The notes beneath the pieces were generated by a model. That model made no database searches, was not told the DNA's origin, and saw only the letters and a list, made by a program, of their open reading frames with translations. Below are positions 363 to 20,621 of a DNA stretch of 33,880 nucleotides, piece after piece. Source of the DNA: Planctomycetales bacterium (lineage in GTDB: Bacteria; Planctomycetota; SBBH01). The stretch spans positions 1-33,880 of the forward strand of contig SBBH01000148.1 in the NCBI GenBank assembly GCA_005239795.1, given 5' to 3'. Made by a program: the position numbers and the translations under genes. Each line of letters opens with the position of its first letter. The stretch's first letter is position 1.

Positions 363-410
363 CAGGATTCGCGCAATCAAACACAGCAGTTATTTCCGCA
401 CGGCGTCTTA
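363..410. mobile_element. MITE-like element, B-end...A-end copy
   Basis: CA|GGATTCGCGCAA...CAGTTATTTCCGCACGGCGTCT|TA. The reverse complement of 387-411 matches 4840-4864 at 24/25 nt, and the left end matches the B-end at 4967. Confidence 0.65.
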
Positions 411-2155: not shown

Positions 2156-3787
2156 TCAATACCCCTTGGGCGGAGGGGAGATGGGAGGAAAAGGCAGCCC
2201 TCCTTTTCCATGCTTGGAATCGTTCTGGGGCCTGTTGAACTCGATCTGTATTGATTCGTCCGCCTTTGCCTTTTCGATCTCCTGGGCCCACCATGCCCAG
2301 GGGGTTTCCGCGTGGAGCTCCTTGAGGAGTTTGGTGAGGGGACTGTTTTCCGACGAGCCGGCCGGCTGGAGGGTGAACGTGATCTCGACCTGGGCCTTGG
2401 GATCAAGTGCGGTGCAGCCGGAGAACTTTCCCTTGTCGACCGCTTCCCGGAGGAGTCTGACGCGTTCGGCGAGCCGCGCTCTCTCTTCCCCCAGGACGAG
2501 GAGCGACAGGAGGGCGTTTGCCTCCCAGCGGCTGTCGGAACGGGCGGCGGCCTCGTCCTTCCAGATTTTTTTCTTTTTAGCATTCGCGTTCTTCAGGTCG
2601 CCGATCACCTCGTAAATCTGGGCTTCGCTTTCCTCGATTTGTTGGATCTCTTCCCGGCTGGTGATGAGGAGCTTGCCGATGTCGACGAGGGCCTCGCCGG
2701 CCAGGACGGTGAATTCAGCGGAGGATTTGGGCGGGAAAGGGCCGCACAGGGAGTCGGCGTGTTTGGCGGCGCGCTGGCGGCGGATCTCGTCGAGGATTGT
2801 TTTCAACCGCTTGCCATAGTCGGTCTCGGGGGTCCTATCCGCCGCATAGCTCGGTCGGTAATGCGCTTGCATCTTCTTTCGGTCGACCGGGACGGGAGAA
2901 GGGTCGGGGTCAGGGACCACGAAGTAGGCGCCGCCCGAGTTGTTTGCGAGCCTGGCCGGCGCGTAGAACCCGAAGCCGGACGGGATTTTGAGGTCTTCCG
3001 GCGGCGGGAGGAGGCGGGCCGCGGGGCCTGGAAGAATTTTTTGTTGCTTGGGGATTACACGGTTCGGGTGGACGGCCAGCTCCATGTCGGGGGATTCCGG
3101 GCCGACCGTTAGCGTGATGTTTCCTTGCCCCTGGAGATTTTTGTCTGTGTATCGGACCCGTTTTTTCATTGTGGCTGTCTGGAAACCTGCCTCGGCCCCG
3201 ATGCAGAAGAATTGCGCCTTTTGGGTCAGGAGCTCCTTTTCCACATCGTCGACTTTGGCCGCGTCGTCGCCTGCCTCATCGGTCACGAGGACGATGATCT
3301 TTTGGCTGTCGTCCGCCTTGAAATCGTTGAGCACAGCCAGGACCGCGGCCATCGGCGTCTCCCTGCCGCTGTCGTCGGGCTTGATCGTCCGGATTGCTTG
3401 CGCAATCAGTTTCTCGTCTTGGGTCGGTTTCTGGACGAGGACTGTCTTTTCCCCAACGCTGTAGACAGTCATCAGGAGATTTTCGTGATGGCGCACTTTT
3501 TTTTGGAGCATTTTAAGGAGGTTGTCCACCTCACCGGCGAGGATTTCACGGTCATCATGCATGCTTTGGGATCGATCGAAGATCCAGGCGACAAGGATTT
3601 TGCCCGCAAGGGGTTTGTCCGCCTTCAGGATCCGCGTCCCGAGAGTCTGGGCTGCCTCTGCGGTGTCATCGACCCATGCATTGGCGCCAGGGTCGGAAGG
3701 CGGTTTAGTTTCTTCGGCCTGGTGCTGGGGGGCTGCCGCCAAAGCGCAGAGGATGAAGCCGGCAATCCTGGTTTGTCGTCTAAGCAT
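2156..3787 (-). CDS. Secreted von Willebrand factor A (vWA) domain protein
   Basis: Signal peptide MLRRQTRIAGFILCALAAA from ATG 3787; MIDAS DRSQS and 'VLVTDEAGDD'; helical C-terminal region. Confidence 0.8.
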   Translation of the reverse strand: MLRRQTRIAGFILCALAAAPQHQAEETKPPSDPGANAWVDDTAEAAQTLGTRILKADKPLAGKILVAWIFDRSQSMHDDREILAGEVDNLLKMLQKKVRHHENLLMTVYSVGEKTVLVQKPTQDEKLIAQAIRTIKPDDSGRETPMAAVLAVLNDFKADDSQKIIVLVTDEAGDDAAKVDDVEKELLTQKAQFFCIGAEAGFQTATMKKRVRYTDKNLQGQGNITLTVGPESPDMELAVHPNRVIPKQQKILPGPAARLLPPPEDLKIPSGFGFYAPARLANNSGGAYFVVPDPDPSPVPVDRKKMQAHYRPSYAADRTPETDYGKRLKTILDEIRRQRAAKHADSLCGPFPPKSSAEFTVLAGEALVDIGKLLITSREEIQQIEESEAQIYEVIGDLKNANAKKKKIWKDEAAARSDSRWEANALLSLLVLGEERARLAERVRLLREAVDKGKFSGCTALDPKAQVEITFTLQPAGSSENSPLTKLLKELHAETPWAWWAQEIEKAKADESIQIEFNRPQNDSKHGKGGLPFPPISPPPKGY

Positions 3788-3914
3788 AATCTGTTGCCAG
3801 GGTAGCACGCGGCCTAGGGGGAGGGCAAACCGATGGGGTGCACGTGTTTCCCCAGTTTGGGTTTTCAGCCCTCGAATTTCGTTCTGCCAGGTCCAGGGAC
3901 TATAATGCGCCCTT

Positions 3915-4865
3915 ATGAAGTCGATCGGAGTGCGGGATCCCCTCGGAACCGTCCTTGCCGGAGGACTCACGGGGCGGCCGTTTCTGGAAGCGTTGCGCCG
4001 CGAGGTGGCGGCCACCGCCGGGGTGGGGCATTCGCTTCTTGGGCGGATGTCGACGGACCCCCGGTCGCGTGCTGATTTCTGCGTCATCGCGCTCCAGCAT
4101 TATCCGCTTGTTACGGTGTTCACGCGCTATCTCGAGATGCTCCTTCTCGCGGCCCCCGATTCCGAGGCGAAAATGTGGCTAGCGAAAGTTTTGGTCGACG
4201 AATACGGGGAAGGATCGCGGGGTCTTGATCACGCCTCGCTCTACCGAAATTTCCTGCGGGCGACCGGGGTTCCCGAGGGACAGGAGCGCAAGGCTCGCTT
4301 GCATCCGGCTGTTGTTGAGTTCATCTTCGAACATCTTCGGATCGCAGCCCGGGAGCCGTTCCTCGTGGGGCTGGGAGCCGTGGGGCCCGGCCACGAATGG
4401 GCGATCCCGGCGATGTTCGCGCGCATGATTCAAGGCCTGCGCGCCGCAGGGTTTGCCGACGGCCAGATCGAGTATTTCCTGTTGCATGTCGAACAGGACA
4501 AGGATCACGGGGCATGGCTTGAAGAGGCCCTGGTGCGCTACGCTCTGACCCCTGAGGCGTGCGGCCAGATTCGAAAAGGGGCGCTCTTGTCCCTGGCCTT
4601 GCGCGAGCAGTTCTGGTGGGGGGTGGCCGACAAGCTGAACGCCGAGCGGATGCGCCAACGGACGGGGCTTTCTCCCAGCACCGCAGGGAGCGAGTCCCGG
4701 GAGTTGACGCTTGAAGAGTTAGAACAGCTTGTGTGTCCCCGCGTGGAATTTCCGTTCGATTCCCCAGCGGGATCCACGGGGGTGCCGAACTGGGCCGCGC
4801 AGGGAGGATTAGAGGGGGAGCTGATGAAAACCGAATCCCCTAAGGCGCCGTGCGGAAATAACTGA
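3915..4865 (+). CDS. Heme-oxygenase-like diiron (iron-containing redox enzyme, CADD/PqqC-like fold) protein
   Basis: DEYGEG..LDH, GPGHEW and YFLLHVEQDKDH give the E/H/E/H-x3-D-x2-H ligand pattern of HDO enzymes. TATAAT at 3901-3906. Last 7 residues and the stop codon derive from the inserted element. Confidence 0.8.
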   Translation: MKSIGVRDPLGTVLAGGLTGRPFLEALRREVAATAGVGHSLLGRMSTDPRSRADFCVIALQHYPLVTVFTRYLEMLLLAAPDSEAKMWLAKVLVDEYGEGSRGLDHASLYRNFLRATGVPEGQERKARLHPAVVEFIFEHLRIAAREPFLVGLGAVGPGHEWAIPAMFARMIQGLRAAGFADGQIEYFLLHVEQDKDHGAWLEEALVRYALTPEACGQIRKGALLSLALREQFWWGVADKLNAERMRQRTGLSPSTAGSESRELTLEELEQLVCPRVEFPFDSPAGSTGVPNWAAQGGLEGELMKTESPKAPCGNN

Positions 4866-5047
4866 TCTGTTTGATTAGGAGGGCCCACAGGGCATGAACG
4901 AATATCTCGGAGATCATGCGCGAGAGATCTTTTCACCTATTTCCTTTACGCACGGCGCCTTATATAGGATTCGCGCAAAAATAAAAGGAGGTTGAAAAAA
5001 AACGGATACGACGGTCAACGACAGAAGTTATTTTTGCGCGAATCCTA
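4841..5047. mobile_element. Composite MITE-like insertion (A..A + TATATA + B..B), TA-flanked
   Basis: 14-bp perfect IR TAAGGCGCCGTGCG at 4841-4854/4949-4962; 21-bp perfect IR ATAGGATTCGCGCAAAAATAA at 4964-4984/5028-5048; AT-rich interior; same ends recur at 363-410 and 20572-20621. Confidence 0.75.
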
Positions 5048-5994
5048 TCGACGGCGTTCTGCTGGTGGCATTCGGCGGGCCCACGCCCGGCTGTTGCGGG
5101 GTGCGCACCCCCTGCCCAGGGGAGGCGTATTGCTTTGTCGAGGGGGTCTTGGGGTGGGAGACCCAGCGCACGGCGCGCGTCGAGGAAGTGGCCGCCCATT
5201 ACCAGCATCTCGGAGGATTCTCGCCGTTCAACCGGTTCACGGAGGAGCAGGCTGGGGCTCTTTCGCGCGAGCTTGCAAGCCGGGGAGTGGATCTGCCAGT
5301 CTGGGTCGGCTACCGGCACTGGGCCCCCTACGTGAAAGAGGTGATGGCCGGAATTTCCCGCGAAGGATGCCGGCGGCTTCTGGCGGTGATTATGGCGCCG
5401 CACCAGTCGACGGTGAGCTGGGACTGGTATCTGAAGGTGGTTGGGGAGGCGCTCGACCCCTTGGGAGAGGCGGCTCCGCAGGTGAAATTCCTCGATCCCT
5501 GGTGGCGCCATCCAGGGTTTGTGGAGGCCTGGGCCGAACGTGTGCGCGAGGCCCTGGCGGGATGGGAGCCCGGGCGCGCCGCGCGGGCTGAGCTTATCTT
5601 CACGGCGCACGCGATCCCGCACGCGATCGCGCGCACGGGACCGTACACGCAGCAGTTTGAGGAGACGGCCTCGGCTGTCGCGAGGAGGCTCGAGCGGCCG
5701 TTCACCTTGGCCTACCAGAGCGGTCCGGAGAATCCGGCGATCCCCTGGACCGACCCTGACATCTGCGAGGTGATGCGTCAACGTGCCAAGAGCGGCCGGG
5801 ATTTTGTCGCCGCTCCCGTCGGTTTCCTCTGCGACAACGTCGAGGTCCTCTACGATCTGGATATCGCGGCGCGGCAGATCGCCCAGGCGCAGGGCTCGGG
5901 TTTTGTCCGGGCCGGCACTGTCGGAACCCATCCCCGATTCATCGGGATGCTGGCGGATCTCGTGGTCGAGCGCATCGGCCGCACCAGAATCTAG
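5047..5994 (+). CDS. hemH: Ferrochelatase (N-terminus interrupted by insertion; first in-frame start GTG 5065)
   Basis: IDGVLLVAFGGP, HYQHLGGFSP, GYRHWAPY, FTAHAIP, AYQSG...PWTDPD and PVGFLCDNVEVLYDLD are ferrochelatase signatures. Confidence 0.9.
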   Translation: MDGVLLVAFGGPTPGCCGVRTPCPGEAYCFVEGVLGWETQRTARVEEVAAHYQHLGGFSPFNRFTEEQAGALSRELASRGVDLPVWVGYRHWAPYVKEVMAGISREGCRRLLAVIMAPHQSTVSWDWYLKVVGEALDPLGEAAPQVKFLDPWWRHPGFVEAWAERVREALAGWEPGRAARAELIFTAHAIPHAIARTGPYTQQFEETASAVARRLERPFTLAYQSGPENPAIPWTDPDICEVMRQRAKSGRDFVAAPVGFLCDNVEVLYDLDIAARQIAQAQGSGFVRAGTVGTHPRFIGMLADLVVERIGRTRI

Positions 5995-6448
5995 ATCATT
6001 CTCGAGTTACTGTGCCGGCTCGTTCCTTTCCGGCCGTTTTCCGTTTGGAAATTCTTGTTCATGGCGGCCCTTGTGGCGGTTCGCCTTTTCGTGGGACACT
6101 TCATTGAGAGAGGCGCCCCTACGGGCGGTTCGCGTGTCCGCGGGACGCTCGGCACGCGATCTGGCCGCCAAGAGCGTGCCTCGCTGCAGTCCGGTTGACG
6201 GCCGGAGGGCCAAGGCATCCAAGTTGTTCCTTCGATGGAAGTCCGCCTCCGGCCTACCGGACAGCCCCGCGACCACGCTCCCGCCCCGGGGCGCGTGCTT
6301 CCTTGTGAATCCCGCCCGCGGATAAAAAACAACAGAGCTTCCCCCGCCCACCCAAGAGGTATCGCCGTCCCTTCGGGCCGGCTTTTTCGATCGGCCCATG
6401 TTCTTCACAACAGAAACAGCGAGCGCTTCTCGCCTCCGGCCACCTAAA

Positions 6449-7777: not shown

Positions 7778-9625
7778 CTACGCTCCAACCGCTTTGCCTA
7801 CGGCGAGGGTCCGCTGGGGCGGTTGGGGTTTGGAGGGCATGCCCCACAGGAAACCCTGGCCGTACCGGACGCCCAGCTTGCGCAGGGTTGCCAGGTCACC
7901 GGCGGTCTCGATCCCTTCCGCGATCACCTCGGCCCCCAGCGCCTGGGCCATCTTGAGGAGGCGCGACAGGGAGCGGCGCCGGCCGGCATCCTGGGAGATG
8001 CCGTCGATGCATTTCCGATCGATCTTGACGATTTCAGGCTCCAAAAGGATGAGGCTCTCCAGGCAGCTGTGGCCGAAGCCGACGTCGTCCATGGCGATGA
8101 GCATCCCGGCCTGCCTGAAGGCTTGGACCGGGCCCACGAGGTAGGAAGGCTCCCCGACGATCTGCTCTTGGCTGATCTCGATGCAATGGTTTTTCCGGGC
8201 TCCGGAGGGAAGGGACTTGAGGAGGCTCGAGACGGGGATTTCACTCGCCGTCACGGGGAACAGATTGATGTGCCTGCGCATCTGGGGGGCCAACGTCGCC
8301 GCGGCCGCCAGACAGGCGTTGAAGCATTGCCGGTCGACCTGTGTGAGGAGGCGCACCTCCTGGGAAAGCCGGAAGAATTCCGACGGCATCGGGAAGGAGG
8401 GGTCATCAGCGCGGCTCAGGATCTCGTATCCGATGATCCGTTCCTCTTCCAGCGCATAGATTGGGTGGAAGACGGGATCGATCTTGGCCTTCTTGCGGAT
8501 CCGCTTGCGGATCGTCGTGTGGAAGTGAATGTCAGGAACCCTCTCCGGCGCCTGTTCCCACGCGCAGACGATGCGGTTCTTGCCGGCGCATTTGCTTTGG
8601 TGCAGGGCGAAGTGGGCTTCGGCCAGGAGCTCGTCGACCGAAAAGACATCGGGGTCGACGGCCACGATGCCGAGACTGACCGTAATGTGCAGGCGATCTG
8701 TGCCATGGGCAATGGGAGGAGATGAGACCATCAGGCGGATTTTTTCCGCAACCTCGCACGCCTCCGCAGGCTTTGTCTGAGGCAGGAAGATGAGAAACTC
8801 GTCGCCGCCGACGCGGCCGGCGTAGTCGGTCGACCGGATTGCAGCCTTCAGGCGTTGGCTCGTCTCTTTCAAGACGAGGTCCCCGACGCCATATCCGAAT
8901 CGGTCGTTGATCTCCTTGAAATCGTCGAGGTCCGCCAGGAGGACGAGGAGGTTCGCCCCACCTCGCTGGAGCCAGTGGATCTCGTGCGAAAGGATCTGCT
9001 GAAGCCCCTGCCGGTTGAAGAGCTCCGTCAGGGGATCGAGGAGAATGAGGTGACTCAAATTCTTGTTGGCCGCTTGGATTTGTCGGGCGGCTTCGGCGAG
9101 TGCCGCTTCGGCTTTCTTGCGTTCGGTGATGTCATGGATGATCGCCGTCGTCATCCGCAGGCTTCCCAGGTGCATGACGTTCAAGGAGACCCGGACCGGG
9201 AACGTCGAACCGTCCTTGCGGCACCCCTCCGACTCGAAATGAGCCACGGCCTCGGCGTCAGGCGGTGCCGTCACCGGAGCGTCCCGATTCCCTAGGAAGG
9301 GAATCAGTTGGTCGATCTTAAGGCCCGTGAACTCGAAGGGGGGATAGCCGAAGAGGCGCGCCGCCGCGGGGTTTGCGGTCTCGATGATGCCGTTCTCGTC
9401 GGCCGTGAGGATGGCGTTGGGGGCGCTTTTCAGGATCGTGTCGATGCGGATTTTGGCGTAGGCCAGATCCTGGGCGTTCGCGCGCGCTTCGGCAGTTCCG
9501 GCGTCAATCTTCTGTTCAAGTGTTTCGTTGAGGGTTTTGAGCCTCTCCTCGGCTTTTTGGCGTTTGCGGATTTCTTCCTGCAGTCGGCGGATTGTCAGTT
9601 CCAGATTGCGCCTGGTGTCGGACAT
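7778..9625 (-). CDS. PAS-GGDEF-EAL diguanylate cyclase/phosphodiesterase
   Basis: N-terminal coiled coil, PAS (..DITERK), RSTD I-site + GGDEF, EIL/DDVGFG/AEGIE EAL motifs; SD AGGAGG upstream. Confidence 0.9.
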   Translation of the reverse strand: MSDTRRNLELTIRRLQEEIRKRQKAEERLKTLNETLEQKIDAGTAEARANAQDLAYAKIRIDTILKSAPNAILTADENGIIETANPAAARLFGYPPFEFTGLKIDQLIPFLGNRDAPVTAPPDAEAVAHFESEGCRKDGSTFPVRVSLNVMHLGSLRMTTAIIHDITERKKAEAALAEAARQIQAANKNLSHLILLDPLTELFNRQGLQQILSHEIHWLQRGGANLLVLLADLDDFKEINDRFGYGVGDLVLKETSQRLKAAIRSTDYAGRVGGDEFLIFLPQTKPAEACEVAEKIRLMVSSPPIAHGTDRLHITVSLGIVAVDPDVFSVDELLAEAHFALHQSKCAGKNRIVCAWEQAPERVPDIHFHTTIRKRIRKKAKIDPVFHPIYALEEERIIGYEILSRADDPSFPMPSEFFRLSQEVRLLTQVDRQCFNACLAAAATLAPQMRRHINLFPVTASEIPVSSLLKSLPSGARKNHCIEISQEQIVGEPSYLVGPVQAFRQAGMLIAMDDVGFGHSCLESLILLEPEIVKIDRKCIDGISQDAGRRRSLSRLLKMAQALGAEVIAEGIETAGDLATLRKLGVRYGQGFLWGMPSKPQPPQRTLAVGKAVGA

Positions 9626-9744
9626 CGCTCCCCCTCCTGTCCTTTCACTGGCCGCCTTTTGCGCGCAACTGACAGACGACTACACGATATCCCCATTTAA
9701 GGGGGAGCGCAAATTCCATTCCTCTTCCAATGGGTCTGGACGAA

Positions 9745-11421
9745 TCAGAGGGTCATCTCATCAGCGGGAAGGGGAGGGCTGATCAAGAATCCCTGCACGG
9801 CGTCGCATCCGTAGGATTTGAGCTTTTTCAAGACCTCGTTTTTCTCGACCCCTTCGGCGATGACATGGAGGGAGAGGGCGTGCGCCAAGTCGATTGTCGA
9901 TTTCACGATGAGACGGGCCTGCTCCTGGTTGTCCATGTCGATCACGAAGGATTTGTCGATCTTGAGGGCGCTCACGGGGAGCTTTTTGAGATGGGACATG
10001 GAGGAGAACCCCGTGCCGAAGTCGTCAATCGTGAATTTTAACCCCATCTCGTGCAGGTTCTGGAAGACCTGCTGGACTTCCGGCGATTCGGTCAGGAAGA
10101 AGTTCTCCGTAATCTCCAGGCTCAGGTCGCCTGCCGACATCCCGTACACCTGGAGGATTTCAGCGATCTCACGGGGGAGATCCGCGTCCTCGAGGTTCCG
10201 CGAAGAGAGGTTCACAGCAACGGGAAATTTGCACCCCTGCCTTCGCCAGACACTCAACTGGTCCATCGCCTGCCGGAGCACATTTTGCGTGAGCGGCTTG
10301 ATGAGTCCCGAACGCTCTGCGAGCGTCACGAACTGGTCGGGGGAAAGGATCCCCCTCTGAGGGTGGTGCCAGCGGACCAGGGCCTCCATGCCGCAGAGCA
10401 GGCCCGTGCGCAGGTCCACCTGGGGTTGGTAGACCAGGAAAAATTCCTGGCGGTCGACCGCCCTGCGTAGGTCAGCCAGGAGTGCAAGGCGGTTCGGGTT
10501 GTACTGGTCCTTTTCCGGGGAGTAGAAAGCGTAATTGTGGAGGCTTCGCTTGGCGACATACATGGCGACATCGGCATGCCGGAGCAGAGTGTCGGCGTCT
10601 GATCCGTGCTCGGGGTGGAGGGCGATGCCGATCGACGCCCCGGAGGCCAGTGACAGGTCGTCTATAAGAAAGGGATCCTCGAGGGATTTCAGGATCTTCT
10701 TCGCGACCGTCTTAGAGACCTCGGCGTCGGCAGTGGGGAGGAGCAGGGCGAATTCATCCCCCCCCAGGCGGGCCAGGATGTCCCCCGGCTCAAGAGCCCT
10801 TTGGATGCGCCGCCCCACAAGCTGGAGCAAGGAGTCCCCACGGACGTGCCCCAGTGTGTCGTTGACCTCCTTGAAGCGGTCAAGGTCGATCAAGAGAAGC
10901 GCCAGGGGGCGCTGGCCCCGTCCCTCCGTATGCAAGAGCTCTTGCACGCGGGTCCGCAGAAGGGTCCGGTTGGGGAGATCCGTGAGCACGTCGTGGTAAG
11001 CCAGATGAAGGATCGTGTCCTCGGCGCGCTTGCGCTCCCGGCGCTCAGCCGCCTCGCGCAGTTCTCGATGGATCACGGGGAGGAGCCGGGCCGTCTGCCC
11101 CTTCATGATATAGTCGTGCGCGCCCGCCTTCATGGCCATTACGGCGCTGGCCTCGCCAATCGAGCCGCAGACAATGATGAAGGGGATGTCATGTTTCGTT
11201 TCCCGAAGGATTGCAAGAGCTTTCAGGACGTCGAATCTGGGCATCGTGTAATCCGAGATCACGAGGTCCCACGGCCCTCGGCTCAGGGCTTCCCGCATCG
11301 CCTCGGCCGTGTCGACGCGGTCATGGACCGGCTCGTACTCCCCGCGTTTCAAGTCCCGCAGGAGGAGTTCGGTATCCTCGACGGAATCCTCGACCACAAG
11401 GACTCGGAGGGGTTGGGGCAT
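9745..11421 (-). CDS. REC-GGDEF-EAL response regulator
   Basis: VLVVEDS..ISDYTMP receiver; RLGGDEF; EALVRW, DDFGTG, AEGVE, QGF. Confidence 0.93.
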   Translation of the reverse strand: MPQPLRVLVVEDSVEDTELLLRDLKRGEYEPVHDRVDTAEAMREALSRGPWDLVISDYTMPRFDVLKALAILRETKHDIPFIIVCGSIGEASAVMAMKAGAHDYIMKGQTARLLPVIHRELREAAERRERKRAEDTILHLAYHDVLTDLPNRTLLRTRVQELLHTEGRGQRPLALLLIDLDRFKEVNDTLGHVRGDSLLQLVGRRIQRALEPGDILARLGGDEFALLLPTADAEVSKTVAKKILKSLEDPFLIDDLSLASGASIGIALHPEHGSDADTLLRHADVAMYVAKRSLHNYAFYSPEKDQYNPNRLALLADLRRAVDRQEFFLVYQPQVDLRTGLLCGMEALVRWHHPQRGILSPDQFVTLAERSGLIKPLTQNVLRQAMDQLSVWRRQGCKFPVAVNLSSRNLEDADLPREIAEILQVYGMSAGDLSLEITENFFLTESPEVQQVFQNLHEMGLKFTIDDFGTGFSSMSHLKKLPVSALKIDKSFVIDMDNQEQARLIVKSTIDLAHALSLHVIAEGVEKNEVLKKLKSYGCDAVQGFLISPPLPADEMTL

Positions 11422-11448
11422 GGTCCTTATTATAGCTCCTCTTGCAAC

Positions 11449-11910
11449 CTATGGGGTTTGGGGGCCAAGCGGCGGGGGTTCGTTTAAGACCAACCAGTAG
11501 AGTCCCATCTGCTCCACCGCCTGGGAAAATTGCTCGAAATCCACGGGCTTGCGGATGTAGCTGTTGGCCCCGTTGGTATAGCTTTCGCCGATGTCCTGCT
11601 CCTCGTTGGAGGAGGTGAGGACGACAACGGGGAGGAGCTTCGTGCGGGGGGCCTCCCGGATCCGTTTCAAGACCTCCAGGCCGCTCACCTTGGGGAGTTT
11701 AAGGTCCAGGAGGACAAGCTGAGGCATGGGGGCCGTTTTGCGGTCGGCGAAGGAGCCTTTTCCGAAGAGGTAGTCGAGCGCCTCGGCCCCGTCGCGGGCC
11801 ACGTGCACGGTGTTGGCGACGCGATGCTTGGAAAGCGCCCGCAACGTGAGGTCCTCGTCGTCGCGGTTGTCCTCCACGAGGAGGATGGTTTTGGGGGACG
11901 TTTTCTTCAT
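11449..11910 (-). CDS. Single-domain response regulator (Rcp1/CphA-partner type)
   Basis: ILLVEDN, LLDLKLP, LTSS, GANSYIRKPVDF; ATG 11910 overlaps the kinase stop. Confidence 0.92.
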   Translation of the reverse strand: MKKTSPKTILLVEDNRDDEDLTLRALSKHRVANTVHVARDGAEALDYLFGKGSFADRKTAPMPQLVLLDLKLPKVSGLEVLKRIREAPRTKLLPVVVLTSSNEEQDIGESYTNGANSYIRKPVDFEQFSQAVEQMGLYWLVLNEPPPLGPQTP

Positions 11911-14525
11911 GCGCTCTCGCCTCCTTCGCGCGGCGCCTTGGGGAGTGTGAAATAGAAGGTGGTTCCGCTCCCTGTTTGCGATTCCGCCCAGACGCGGCCG
12001 CCGTGGCGATGGATCACGCGTTGGACGCTCGCCAGGCCGATCCCGTTCCCTTCGAACTCCGCCGGGTTGTGCAGGCGCTGAAAGACGCCGAAGAGCTTGT
12101 CCGCGTAGGCCATGTCGAACCCCACCCCATTGTCCCGGACGAAAAATATTTTTTCGCCCTCTTGAAGCACCATACCACATGCGATCTTCGCCGGTGAAGA
12201 GTGCCGGCTGAATTTCCAGGCATTGCCGATCAGGTTTTCAAAGAGGGTGCGTAGAAGCGAGAGGTCCCCTTCGGCGGTCATGCCGGGGGTGATCTCCCAC
12301 GCCACGCGGCGCTTCGGCTCCCTTTCTTCGAGTTCCTTGGCCGTCGATTCGGCGATCGCGCTCAAGTCGACCGTCTCGCGCCGTATCGGGGCCCGGGCCA
12401 GGCGTGAGAGGTTGAGGACGTCGTCGATCAAGCGGCCCATCCGCTGGCTGGCTGCCCGGACGCGCTGTAGATATTCCTGTCCCTTGGCGTCCAATTTCCC
12501 GCTGTAGTCCTCCAGGAGCGCCTGAGAGAATCCGTCAATCCCGCGCAGGGGGGCCCTAAGGTCGTGCGAAATGGAATAGCTGAACGATTCGAGCTCCTTG
12601 ACGGCGGCCTGGAGCGATTGCGTGCGTTCCGCCACGCGCTGCTCCAGGGAGGCGTTGACGCGGCGGATCTCCTCCTCCGATTTTTTGCGCTCGGTGATGT
12701 CGACGATAGAAGCGAGAATGCATAGCCCCTCGGGGGTCTCGATGGGGTTGAGGTCGATCTCGACGGGGATCTCTCGACCGTCTTTGTGCAGGCCGAAGAG
12801 GTCCCGGCCGGCTCCCATGGGCCGCGCCTGGGGGGCGGCGAAGAAGGCGTTGCGGTGGCCCGGATGCGCCTCGCGGAAGCGCGCCGGGACGAGATCCTCG
12901 ACGGGGCGGCCGATGAGTCCTTTCCGGGTCCACCCGAACAGCTTTTCCGTTTGATTGTTGACGAGCATGATCCGTCCCTTGCGGTCGACCAGGATCATGG
13001 CTGTCGGCGCCCCTTCGAGCGCCAGGCGGAACCGTTCCTCGGCCTTCTTGCGCTCGGTGATGTCGCGCACAAAGGCGTTAAAGGTCGTTTCCCCCCTGAA
13101 CGTGACGGGGGAGACGGAGAGCTCCACCAGGAATTCGCTTCCGTCGCGCCGGAGGGCTTCGATCTCGATCCGCTTGTTAAGGATGGGGCCCTCCCCCGTG
13201 GCGAGGAAATGGGCCAGCCCCCGGGCGTGCGCCTCCCGGTAACGCGCCGGCATGATGAGGTCGGCCAGGAGGGATCCGATCGCCTTCTCAGCGGGCCATC
13301 CGAAGATCTTCTCCGCCTGGGAGTTCCATCCGATGATCGTCCCGCGGGCATCCATGGCGATGACGGCGTCGATGGCGTTCTCCAGGATCAACCACATCTT
13401 CTCCTCGCTTTCCCGGAGCTCCTTTTCGGTCTGCTTTTGGGTCGCTTGCGTCAGTTCCAGGGATGCCGCCATGTCGTCGAAGGAACGGGCCAGTTCGCCG
13501 ATCTCGCCGCCGCCGACGCGTGTCCCGGACCGGGTGGTCAGATCCCCTTTCGCGATCCGTTGGATGGCCGCCAGGAGTATTTTGACAGGGCGCAACACCA
13601 GGAATTCGCTGCCGAGCCAAGCGGCGGCTATGATCAGGATCGTGACGATTGCCAGGGCCGACAGAGAGCGTTCGACGATCCTGTCGACGGGGGCGTAGGC
13701 GATCGACAGGGGAACGCCGACGGCGAGCCTCATGCCCGTCGCTTTCCCATCGGCCTCTCCCACGGAGAGGAAGGCGTACAGCCGTTTGACGCCGTCGAGC
13801 CCTTCGACTTCGCCGGTTCCATCGCGGATGGTCTGGGCCGCTTCGACCAAGGGGTGGCTGGGATGAAGTCTGCCGGTCCATTCCGGGAGAACGGGGCGGC
13901 GCGCCAGGACCGTCCCCTGGGAGTCGAAGAAGACGATGACGGTTCCCTCGGGCAACTCGATCCCTTCCAGAAACGTCTGGAGGAATTCGAGATTCATCGA
14001 GGCCCAGATCACCTGTTCCAACTTTCCGTCCTCGGTGTAGACGGGATAGGCGAAGCTGACCGTCGGCTTTTCGGTGACGTGGTCGATCTGGTAATTCCCC
14101 ATGGAAAACCGCCGGGTTTCCAAGGCGCGTTGGAACCACGACTGGTCCGAGAAATTGGAGACTTCCGTGGGAGCGATGGCGCTTGCGAGGAGATCTCCGT
14201 TCGGTTTGACCATCCCTAAATTTGCGTGACGGGGGTTCTGTTTGAGCACTTCGGTCAGGACGTCATTGGTGGTCTCGATGTCGCGGCGGCGCACCATCGG
14301 GAGTTTCGAAAGGGCGATGAGCAGTTGCTCTGTTCCCTGGATCACCTCGGTCTGTTGGGCGGAGGTCAAGCGGGCGATGTCGAGGATTTGGGTGTAGGCC
14401 TCGCGCTTGGCGCTTTGGCGCAGTTCCACCGCGGCGTAGCCGATGAGCGTCAACGGGGCAATGGTTGCCAACAGGATGAGGATCAGGAGGCGGCTACGGA
14501 AACTGCCGAGGGCCAGAGGCATCAT
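11907..14525 (-). CDS. Sensor histidine kinase (Cache-HAMP-PAS-PAS-HisKA-HATPase)
   Basis: Two TM segments flanking a Cache-like domain, HAMP (EIGELARSFDDM), two PAS, SHDLRAPLR H-box, N/G1/F/G2 boxes. Confidence 0.93.
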   Translation of the reverse strand: MMPLALGSFRSRLLILILLATIAPLTLIGYAAVELRQSAKREAYTQILDIARLTSAQQTEVIQGTEQLLIALSKLPMVRRRDIETTNDVLTEVLKQNPRHANLGMVKPNGDLLASAIAPTEVSNFSDQSWFQRALETRRFSMGNYQIDHVTEKPTVSFAYPVYTEDGKLEQVIWASMNLEFLQTFLEGIELPEGTVIVFFDSQGTVLARRPVLPEWTGRLHPSHPLVEAAQTIRDGTGEVEGLDGVKRLYAFLSVGEADGKATGMRLAVGVPLSIAYAPVDRIVERSLSALAIVTILIIAAAWLGSEFLVLRPVKILLAAIQRIAKGDLTTRSGTRVGGGEIGELARSFDDMAASLELTQATQKQTEKELRESEEKMWLILENAIDAVIAMDARGTIIGWNSQAEKIFGWPAEKAIGSLLADLIMPARYREAHARGLAHFLATGEGPILNKRIEIEALRRDGSEFLVELSVSPVTFRGETTFNAFVRDITERKKAEERFRLALEGAPTAMILVDRKGRIMLVNNQTEKLFGWTRKGLIGRPVEDLVPARFREAHPGHRNAFFAAPQARPMGAGRDLFGLHKDGREIPVEIDLNPIETPEGLCILASIVDITERKKSEEEIRRVNASLEQRVAERTQSLQAAVKELESFSYSISHDLRAPLRGIDGFSQALLEDYSGKLDAKGQEYLQRVRAASQRMGRLIDDVLNLSRLARAPIRRETVDLSAIAESTAKELEEREPKRRVAWEITPGMTAEGDLSLLRTLFENLIGNAWKFSRHSSPAKIACGMVLQEGEKIFFVRDNGVGFDMAYADKLFGVFQRLHNPAEFEGNGIGLASVQRVIHRHGGRVWAESQTGSGTTFYFTLPKAPREGGESA

Positions 14526-20571: not shown

Positions 20572-20621
20572 TAAGGCGCCGCACGGAAATAACTTCTATA
20601 GTTATTTTTGCGCGAATCCTA
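20572..20621. mobile_element. MITE-like element, A-end...B-end copy
   Basis: TA|AGGCGCCGCACGGAAATAACT-tctat-AGTTATTTTTGCGCGAATCC|TA; 20600-20621 is identical to 5026-5047; supplies the permease TAG stop. Confidence 0.75.

Follow-up and report, generated by a model that had tools for sequence, protein, structure and literature searches.

How can a bacterium keep an intact ferrochelatase gene body that has been cut off from its own start codon? The question is raised by a stretch of 33,880 nucleotides (nt) from a Planctomycetales bacterium (GenBank assembly GCA_005239795.1, contig SBBH01000148.1; hereafter the window), in which a gene for a haem-oxygenase-like diiron oxidase (HDO; 3915-4865, plus strand) precedes the body of the ferrochelatase gene hemH (5047-5994, plus strand, stop codon TAG at 5992-5994), with an inserted repeat element of 203 base pairs (bp) between them. 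The host genome (G000; 2.3 Mb in 263 contigs) is 88% complete, and all searches of it below are to be read with that figure in mind. Both genes were readily recognized, with HDO matching PF14518 at 99.8 bits (cut-off 28.9) and the hemH body (5047-5991) matching PF00762 at 233 bits (cut-off 27). HemH residues 2-309 align to positions 3-310 of the 311 positions of the NCBIfam profile NF000689, so few N-terminal residues are missing. No standard start codon precedes the region of hemH homology in frame, as an earlier note made from the letters of the window had observed: the preceding stop in the hemH frame is TGA 4993-4995, the first ATG, GTG or TTG after it is GTG 5065, and the open frame comprises 332 amino acids (aa). 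A start at GTG 5065, which lies inside strand beta-1, would cost HemH most of that strand, and beta-1 is present in 72 of 72 orthologues. Nor is the VAFGGP position the native start in this family, since 17 of 17 orthologues inspected begin 2-10 residues before beta-1. This hemH is therefore not a complete gene with a start codon ahead of its first strand.

The native start of hemH is found upstream of the element. At 4814-4842 (plus strand) lie a Shine-Dalgarno (SD)-like GGGGGAG (4814-4820), ATG 4824 and five codons, followed by the element at 4843-5045 (plus strand). The TA dinucleotides at 4841-4842 and 5046-5047 flank the element as a target-site duplication, and the A of the right-hand TA is the first base of the Ile codon with which the hemH body begins. 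When the element and one TA (205 nt) were removed by script, ATG 4824 came into frame with the hemH body, giving an N-terminal length that fits the orthologues, and the reconstruction proposed in the earlier note was thus borne out. The same start also shares the frame of HDO, whose sole stop, TGA 4863-4865, lies 21 nt within the element, so that the reconstructed empty allele is a single stop-to-stop frame of 627 codons, 312 to the left and 314 to the right of the junction.

The element itself is a dispersed repeat of this genome. Its GC content is 0.42-0.46, compared with 0.6-0.7 in the flanks, and it consists of two modules, A (~4843-4961, ~119 bp) and B (~4967-5045, ~80 bp), each of which forms a hairpin and has inverted ends of its own. 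The hairpins described in the earlier note are clearly present, with inverted-repeat arms at 4841-4858/4945-4962 and 4956-4984/5028-5056 (18-29 nt, 90-94% complementary) and a predicted RNA fold of 4800-5100 with two strong hairpins at -115 kcal/mol (z = -4.3). The two outer ends of the composite share just the termini TA(A)GG...CC(T)TA, and solo copies of A and of B are also present in the genome. The genome has about 40 copies of the family: a 204-nt query gave 44 matches spread over many contigs, and BLAST gave 49 high-scoring segment pairs at E <= 1e-5, 15 of them full length, with TA on both sides in 12 of the 15. Genome-wide, the left-end 20-mers (up to three mismatches) matched 88 times for module A and 82 times for module B. 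Each terminal repeat occurs three times in the window, where 0.01-0.02 matches were expected. These include two derivatives of ~45 bp that retain just the outer A end and the outer B end, one of 46 bp at 20574-20619 (plus strand, A left end and B right end, TA-flanked) and one in reversed orientation at 365-408 (minus strand, B end and A end), which indicates that the outer ends are what is mobilized.

By these features the element is a miniature inverted-repeat transposable element (MITE) of the TA-duplicating, Tc1/mariner/IS630 style, a new family of a known kind. It is small and carries no transposase gene, its longest internal open reading frame (ORF) having 33 codons, and its dispersed copies occur alongside both filled and empty sites. 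No partner with the same ends was found, as the genome has no PF13358 (DDE_3) match, a search that covers this family of transposases. Pairs of terminal repeats 1.9 and 2.2 kb apart were considered as a possible autonomous element and rejected, as they are separate copies enclosing ordinary genes. Within the set of genomes searched, this species alone has the family: no copy was found in any of five relatives, among them the same-genus genome G001 (92% complete), whose orthologous HDO-hemH junction is empty.

Short elements of comparable design are known from other bacteria. Correia/NEMIS of Neisseria and RUP of Streptococcus pneumoniae resemble the element in length (100-200 bp), terminal inverted repeats, TA duplication and high copy number, and likewise in their strongly folded transcripts and their mostly intergenic, at times intragenic, placement. 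In the part of PMC2229807 available to us, RUP is proposed to be mobilized by IS630-Spn1, and MITE ORFs are described as able to fuse in frame to host ORFs. The present element differs from both in having no sequence relation to them, in being a composite of two hairpin modules that each also occur solo, in having no partner transposase by the PF13358 search, and in its confinement to one species. In Rfam, module B gave a match to mir-548 over the full model and on both strands, at 30 bits against a gathering threshold of 90 (E = 7e-4). The mir-548 family derives from a mariner MITE, Made1 of primates, with which module B has in common a TA-flanked palindromic hairpin of ~80 nt. However, the match is far under threshold and almost certainly reflects convergent hairpin composition; Rfam family membership was rejected, as all miRNA-hairpin matches were sub-threshold.

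The earlier note had cautioned that the left flank, GAATCCCCTA, might resemble the B end and make the junction coincidental. This concern did not hold up: beyond GAATCC and TA nothing aligns, the flank works as the N-terminus of hemH, and a C before TA also tends to occur at other copies, so the flank was rejected as a B-end relic. Other copies also lie close to genes. A second full copy (C102:14635-14836) is placed exactly at the junction of genes for a radical-SAM protein and a short-chain dehydrogenase, with an upstream TAA made of TA and the element's first base and a downstream GTG 3 nt past the right TA. Its in-silico empty site is a stop-free frame of 660 codons, the same apparent fusion upon excision as at HDO and hemH; the dehydrogenase of this pair was not found in G001 with the query used. 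Two copies (C122:1807-2019 and C69:4708 onward) lie a few codons upstream of gene starts and another (C168:17511-17718) lies 8 codons ahead of a gene's stop. The last 26 nt of the element are stop-free in all frames, and read-out ORFs into downstream genes are therefore common.

We asked whether the insertion is real in the population. In Logan contigs from the probable source sample, 4300-4978 and 5018-5600 were covered without a difference and a third contig covered 4956-5040, so that both element junctions were present. The same study has a second sample, in which a 182-nt contig covers 4763-4944, again without a difference. No empty-site joint was found in the contigs of three runs, although contigs drop rare variants and a minority empty allele could escape. 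When metagenomes were scanned with HemH in search of a conspecific empty site, 46 loci came back, but even the best (57-71% identity) were too distant. A look-up for RNA data sets covering the stretch listed none.

Were HDO and hemH a gene pair or a single fused gene before the element arrived? The earlier note had read the stop-free empty allele as a possible fusion. The frame is indeed open, but relatives tell of two genes. In G001 the last codon of HDO and the first of hemH overlap as GTGA, and in G032 as ATGA within a hemE-HDO-hemH-hemY cluster; hemH N-termini differ in both, so that, in relatives without the element, a stop separates the two domains and hemH begins differently, which is an outcome that the earlier note had named as refuting its reading. 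Gaps of 246 nt (G002) and 165 nt (G031, in an HDO-hemH-hemE cluster) separate the genes in two other relatives, and a further one (G003) has hemE-hemH-hemY and no HDO at that place. A scan with an HDO alignment, taking one genome per species, yielded 80 loci, mostly in Planctomycetota with some in Entotheonella, Myxococcota and Acidobacteriota, 42 of which have hemH downstream on the same strand. None of the 42 is fused: an HDO stop comes before the hemH homology in every one, at a distance of 50 nt or less in 28, and 11 show a 4-nt overlap in which the start codon begins one base before the stop.

Two large protein searches likewise turned up no natural protein joining HDO to a ferrochelatase. 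Among longer relatives of hemH, a word-indexed search in which a blank is weak evidence gave three matches, a HemE-HemH fusion (P0001) and two others, none with HDO. Among the best 150 of 514 HDO relatives from an exhaustive search, 11 proteins were scanned with Pfam (nine longer than 400 aa, plus P0009 and P0014; P0120, of 1143 aa, was outside this set), and none had PF00762. In two HDO relatives (P0010 and P0018), HDO is followed by what looks by eye like a radical-SAM-type sequence, to which Pfam gave no match; apparently, these long proteins reflect gene calling that read through in high-GC DNA, not real fusions. The open HDO-ferrochelatase frame was thus found just in the in-silico empty site of G000.

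The junction itself hints at how this frame came to be open. TGA 4822 and TGA 4825 bracket ATG 4824 as TGATGA, and a TAG at 4810 lies 11 nt upstream of that ATG, each of these stops being in the +1 frame with respect to HDO. Residues 276-303, the HDO tail, score below 50 in the AlphaFold model by the predicted local distance difference test (pLDDT) and cannot be aligned among homologues. The simplest explanation of the open frame is one 1-nt indel within the final ~25 nt of HDO; the TGATGA would then be what is left of a normal stop/start junction like those of the relatives, seen with HDO one base out of phase. An indel later than the insertion would have been neutral, with ATG 4824 by then serving no gene, and an earlier one would have made a real lineage-specific fusion; both readings need this indel and differ in its timing only. 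A DNA alignment of the HDO tail with G001, aimed at placing the indel, met a short and divergent region. On balance, HDO and hemH are probably two genes of a late haem-biosynthesis cluster, separate in ancestry and coupled in translation, and not a fusion.

That cluster appears to have been rearranged in G000, because hemE and hemY, intact and adjoining (~350 nt apart), are on another contig (C242:1184-3781), whereas relatives carry hemH, with or without HDO, between them. In the window HDO-hemH forms an isolated two-gene unit flanked by genes for a VWA protein and a cupin protein. Farther along, a run of minus-strand signalling genes unrelated to haem (7781-14525) encodes two GGDEF-EAL proteins, one with a PAS and one with a receiver domain, and a Cache/HAMP/PAS histidine kinase.

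The hemH body itself bears few marks of decay. It has no stop and no frameshift over 315 codons, and compared with 72 distinct orthologues it deviates in 0 of 52 columns conserved at 90% or more, in 1 of 82 at 80% (median orthologue, 3) and in 6 of 112 at 70% (median, 8). Positions 4-8 of the orthologues are occupied in 72 of 72. Whether this conservation is informative depends on the age of the insertion. Set against nine close copies, the element copy at hemH shows differences at 10 positions that are private to it and at 11 that are shared, two indels among them. Sample-wide, the window allele has at 4885 and at 4936 the same depth as the locus (16.1), so there is no source copy with these alleles in the sample. 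If the private changes post-date the insertion, the neutral expectation would be ~47 substitutions, ~5.5 changes in conserved codons (52 codons; P = 0.004 for none) and ~9 indels. The intact body therefore points to purifying selection, and hemH is probably still needed and expressed. No second PF00762 match was found in the genome, leaving this hemH as its sole recognizable ferrochelatase gene.

HemH has, in the region of 5089-5136 (residues 15-30), four cysteines (C16, C17, C23 and C29) arranged as GCC-x5-C-x5-C between beta-1 and the first helix. They are invariant in the HDO-linked HemH clade and present in 60-61 of the 72 orthologues. Their position differs from those given for [2Fe-2S] motifs, in the C-terminal tail or in an internal insertion, in the part of PMC8529089 available to us.

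How, then, could HemH be made now? In the course of events that we propose, a TA-duplicating, two-hairpin MITE would have inserted 18 nt downstream of the hemH start codon, parting the ferrochelatase body from its own SD and ATG and adding a few codons to HDO before a stop that the element supplies. The likeliest route to HemH would then be initiation inside the element, yielding an N-terminally extended product. The element holds an ORF of 33 codons in the hemH frame (4894-4995, plus strand, from ATG 4894 to TGA 4993) with GGAGG at 4878-4882 upstream, and after TGA 4993 the frame is open into hemH; one candidate route would be initiation at ATG 4894 with read-through of UGA 4993. At 4987-5002 (plus strand) a second GGAGG (4987-4991) directly precedes TTG 4992, which overlaps TGA 4993 as TTGA, and a run of eight adenines (A8) follows at 4995-5002. 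Initiation at TTG 4992 could reach the hemH frame by a shift at the A8 run, either because the RNA lacks one A or by a +1 slip. The near-cognate ACG 5002, in the hemH frame and 10 nt past GGAGG, is a third candidate.

Comparison with other copies shows what is particular to this one. In a copy of the same 204-nt length (C97) the ORF corresponding to ATG 4894 is open through the right end of the element, and a consensus-like copy in the hemH phase would lengthen HemH by 51 residues at its N-terminus. The hemH copy has gained an A at 4986 and lost a base near 4995-4998, which shifts a 9-nt window that now holds the TGA, and the same changes produced the GGAGG directly before TTG 4992. The A8 run is likewise private, other copies having G at 4995 and 4998. 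The 3' end of the G000 16S rRNA carries the anti-SD. A scan for promoters and terminators gave no promoter-like site in 3700-6300 and no terminator within the element. N-terminally extended ferrochelatases are common, at 56 of 482 in the available part of PMC8529089.

Taken as a whole, the explanation that we favour, with modest confidence, is a MITE insertion into a pair of separate genes, after which hemH stayed under selection and came to depend on a start within the element. Several observations weigh against it. No canonical in-frame start lies between the stop at 4993 and 5065, all the routes proposed depend on an inefficient step (UGA read-through, +1 shifting or slippage at A8, or initiation at a near-cognate codon), and the ORF from ATG 4894 was closed by private changes, the opposite of selection keeping it open. 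The empty allele is truly stop-free in silico, which fits a lineage-specific fusion before the insertion. The private differences may have been inherited from an unsampled source copy, in which case the insertion would be young and the argument from selection void. Lineage-specific substitutions are also unevenly spread, with 28 in HemH of G000 versus 18 in G001, and 11 versus 23 in HDO (Fisher p = 0.014), an excess in HemH that is compatible with some relaxation. This excess, the want of a start other than one that sacrifices the universal beta-1, and the fact that 48 of 121 sampled genomes of the phylum have no PF00762 match, so that life without hemH occurs there, could together mean that hemH was recently inactivated and that the organism scavenges haem or is a defective variant. 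We regard this as possible, though doubtful, since the frame has remained intact over 315 codons with all 52 conserved positions unaltered, although the inserted copy has diverged by ~5% in private changes, hemE, hemY and HDO have been retained, and the same allele was found in a second sample.

A fusion ancestor is the less probable of the remaining histories to be taken seriously, and we consider it unlikely. Under it, a single 624-aa HDO-ferrochelatase, possibly with an internal start, existed just before the insertion and was split by the element. The stop-free reading from ATG 3915 to TAG 5992 and the placement of the SD and ATG 4824 in the HDO frame agree with this, and such joinings have precedent in the HemE-HemH fusion and in a natural ferrochelatase-coproheme decarboxylase fusion of Cutibacterium acnes, described in the available part of PMC8529089. 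That HemH-HemQ protein unites a ferrochelatase with the enzyme that receives its product, much as hemH is tightly coupled here to an oxidase gene in genomes in which searches found no ChdC, but it is a real, experimentally shown fusion with a partner of the chlorite-dismutase fold, whereas the partner in the present case is an HDO and the searches turned up no fusion. The absence of fusion at all 42 related loci and in the scanned proteins, the GTGA overlap in the same genus and the TGATGA and TAG 4810, which look like the relic of a normal junction, all speak for separate genes, and a fusion would need the same 1-nt indel in a region still constrained at the time. It is very improbable that the interruption is instead removed at expression, by ribosomal bypass from CCT 4839 to CCT 5044 as the earlier note had speculated, or by DNA excision in part of the population. 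Matching codons on both sides of two strong hairpins recall gene 60 of phage T4, in which identical codons flank a non-coding gap with a hairpin. However, a TA duplication plus CC before the target yields such codons trivially, the take-off codon is followed by AAG and not by a stop as in gene 60, and the gap is 205 nt, while known bypass gaps are ~50 nt or less; the site thus lacks the features that define known bypass sites. Excision is opposed by the search of G000 that found no DDE_3 transposase, by repeat pairs more than 300 bp apart that enclose ordinary genes, and by the absence of an empty-site joint in contigs of the three runs. Least credible of all is a mis-assembly that misplaced a repeat here. 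Repeats are hard to assemble in metagenome bins and many copies add to the depth over the element, but an independent contig set and the contig of a second sample match the locus without difference, the private alleles of this copy occur at locus depth, and the flanks join precisely into one hemH start.

What does the HDO do beside a ferrochelatase? Its metal ligands (E96, H106, E161, H191, D195 and H198) match those of CADD when the two are aligned, and in the HDO alignment each is invariant or conserved at 90% or more; its AlphaFold model (pLDDT 84.8) has CADD, BesC, HrmI and UndA as top Foldseek matches, with probability 1.00 to CADD, BesC and UndA. By profile, seven-helix fold and six ligands it belongs to the HDO superfamily. 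It shares fold and ligands with UndA, BesC and CADD, but its identity to the Foldseek matches is 17-22% and, unlike them, it lies in a hemE/hemH/hemY context. The family is small, with 31 cluster representatives at E <= 1e-30 in 1.84 billion. One distant relative (P0043) is fused to protochlorophyllide-reductase-type and rubredoxin-like domains.

None of the enzymes known to decarboxylate propionate to vinyl groups in haem synthesis, ChdC (PF06778), HemF (PF01218) and HemN, was found in profile searches of G000; its sole HemN_C protein is HemW (TIGR00539, 265 bits, cut-off 205; TIGR00538, 113 bits, cut-off 325). We therefore looked at how these genes are distributed among the 121 genomes of the phylum sample, each at least 85% complete. 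HDO (called at E <= 1e-30) was present in 13, hemH (PF00762) in 73, including 12 of the 13 with HDO, ChdC in 15, HemF in 24 and HemN in 37. A known decarboxylase was found in 3 of the 12 genomes with both HDO and hemH, namely G079 (HemF), G100 (HemN) and G114 (ChdC), versus at least one of the three in 56 of the 61 genomes with hemH but no HDO. This difference has a Fisher p of 4e-6, with the HDO genomes coming from about six families, a value that overstates the case because relatives are not independent. Three further Planctomycetota with the HDO-hemH pair on contigs of megabase size had no ChdC, HemF or HemN over the cut-off. The HDO gene of G079 (C50:29649-30389) contains an in-frame TGA, and it may be decaying where a classical enzyme is present. 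HDO and ChdC were rejected as strict alternatives, as G114 and two Entotheonella genomes with the HDO-hemH pair have both.

UndA converts a carboxylate chain to a vinyl end plus CO2. On the strength of this chemistry, together with genomic context and phyletic complementarity, we tentatively propose that HDO may be a coproheme or coproporphyrinogen oxidative decarboxylase that stands in for ChdC, HemF and HemN in Planctomycetota, a possibility worth pursuing though not yet a probable one. Searches of full-text literature, with subscription journals outside their reach, found no paper linking HDO to haem synthesis, and the terms "diiron" and "heme oxygenase-like" are absent from the available text of a 2026 review (PMC13564367). 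As far as these searches show, the hemE/hemH/hemY context is new for the HDO superfamily. It is rather doubtful that both parts would hold together, namely that the only ferrochelatase of this organism is kept alive by recoding through element-borne signals and that HDO is an unrecognized O2-dependent diiron decarboxylase of haem synthesis.

A MITE inside a gene is an ordinary event, yet here an apparently single-copy biosynthetic gene has been left without a start and is still conserved, which makes the locus a natural test of tolerated N-terminal damage and of non-canonical initiation in a bacterium. Its larger value lies in its context, an HDO in hemE/hemH/hemY clusters, and the most valuable lead is the HDO itself, which in Planctomycetota is found mostly in genomes without a detected propionate-to-vinyl decarboxylase. 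If HDO does prove to be that decarboxylase, a gap in bacterial haem biosynthesis would be filled and a tetrapyrrole substrate would be added to the HDO superfamily.

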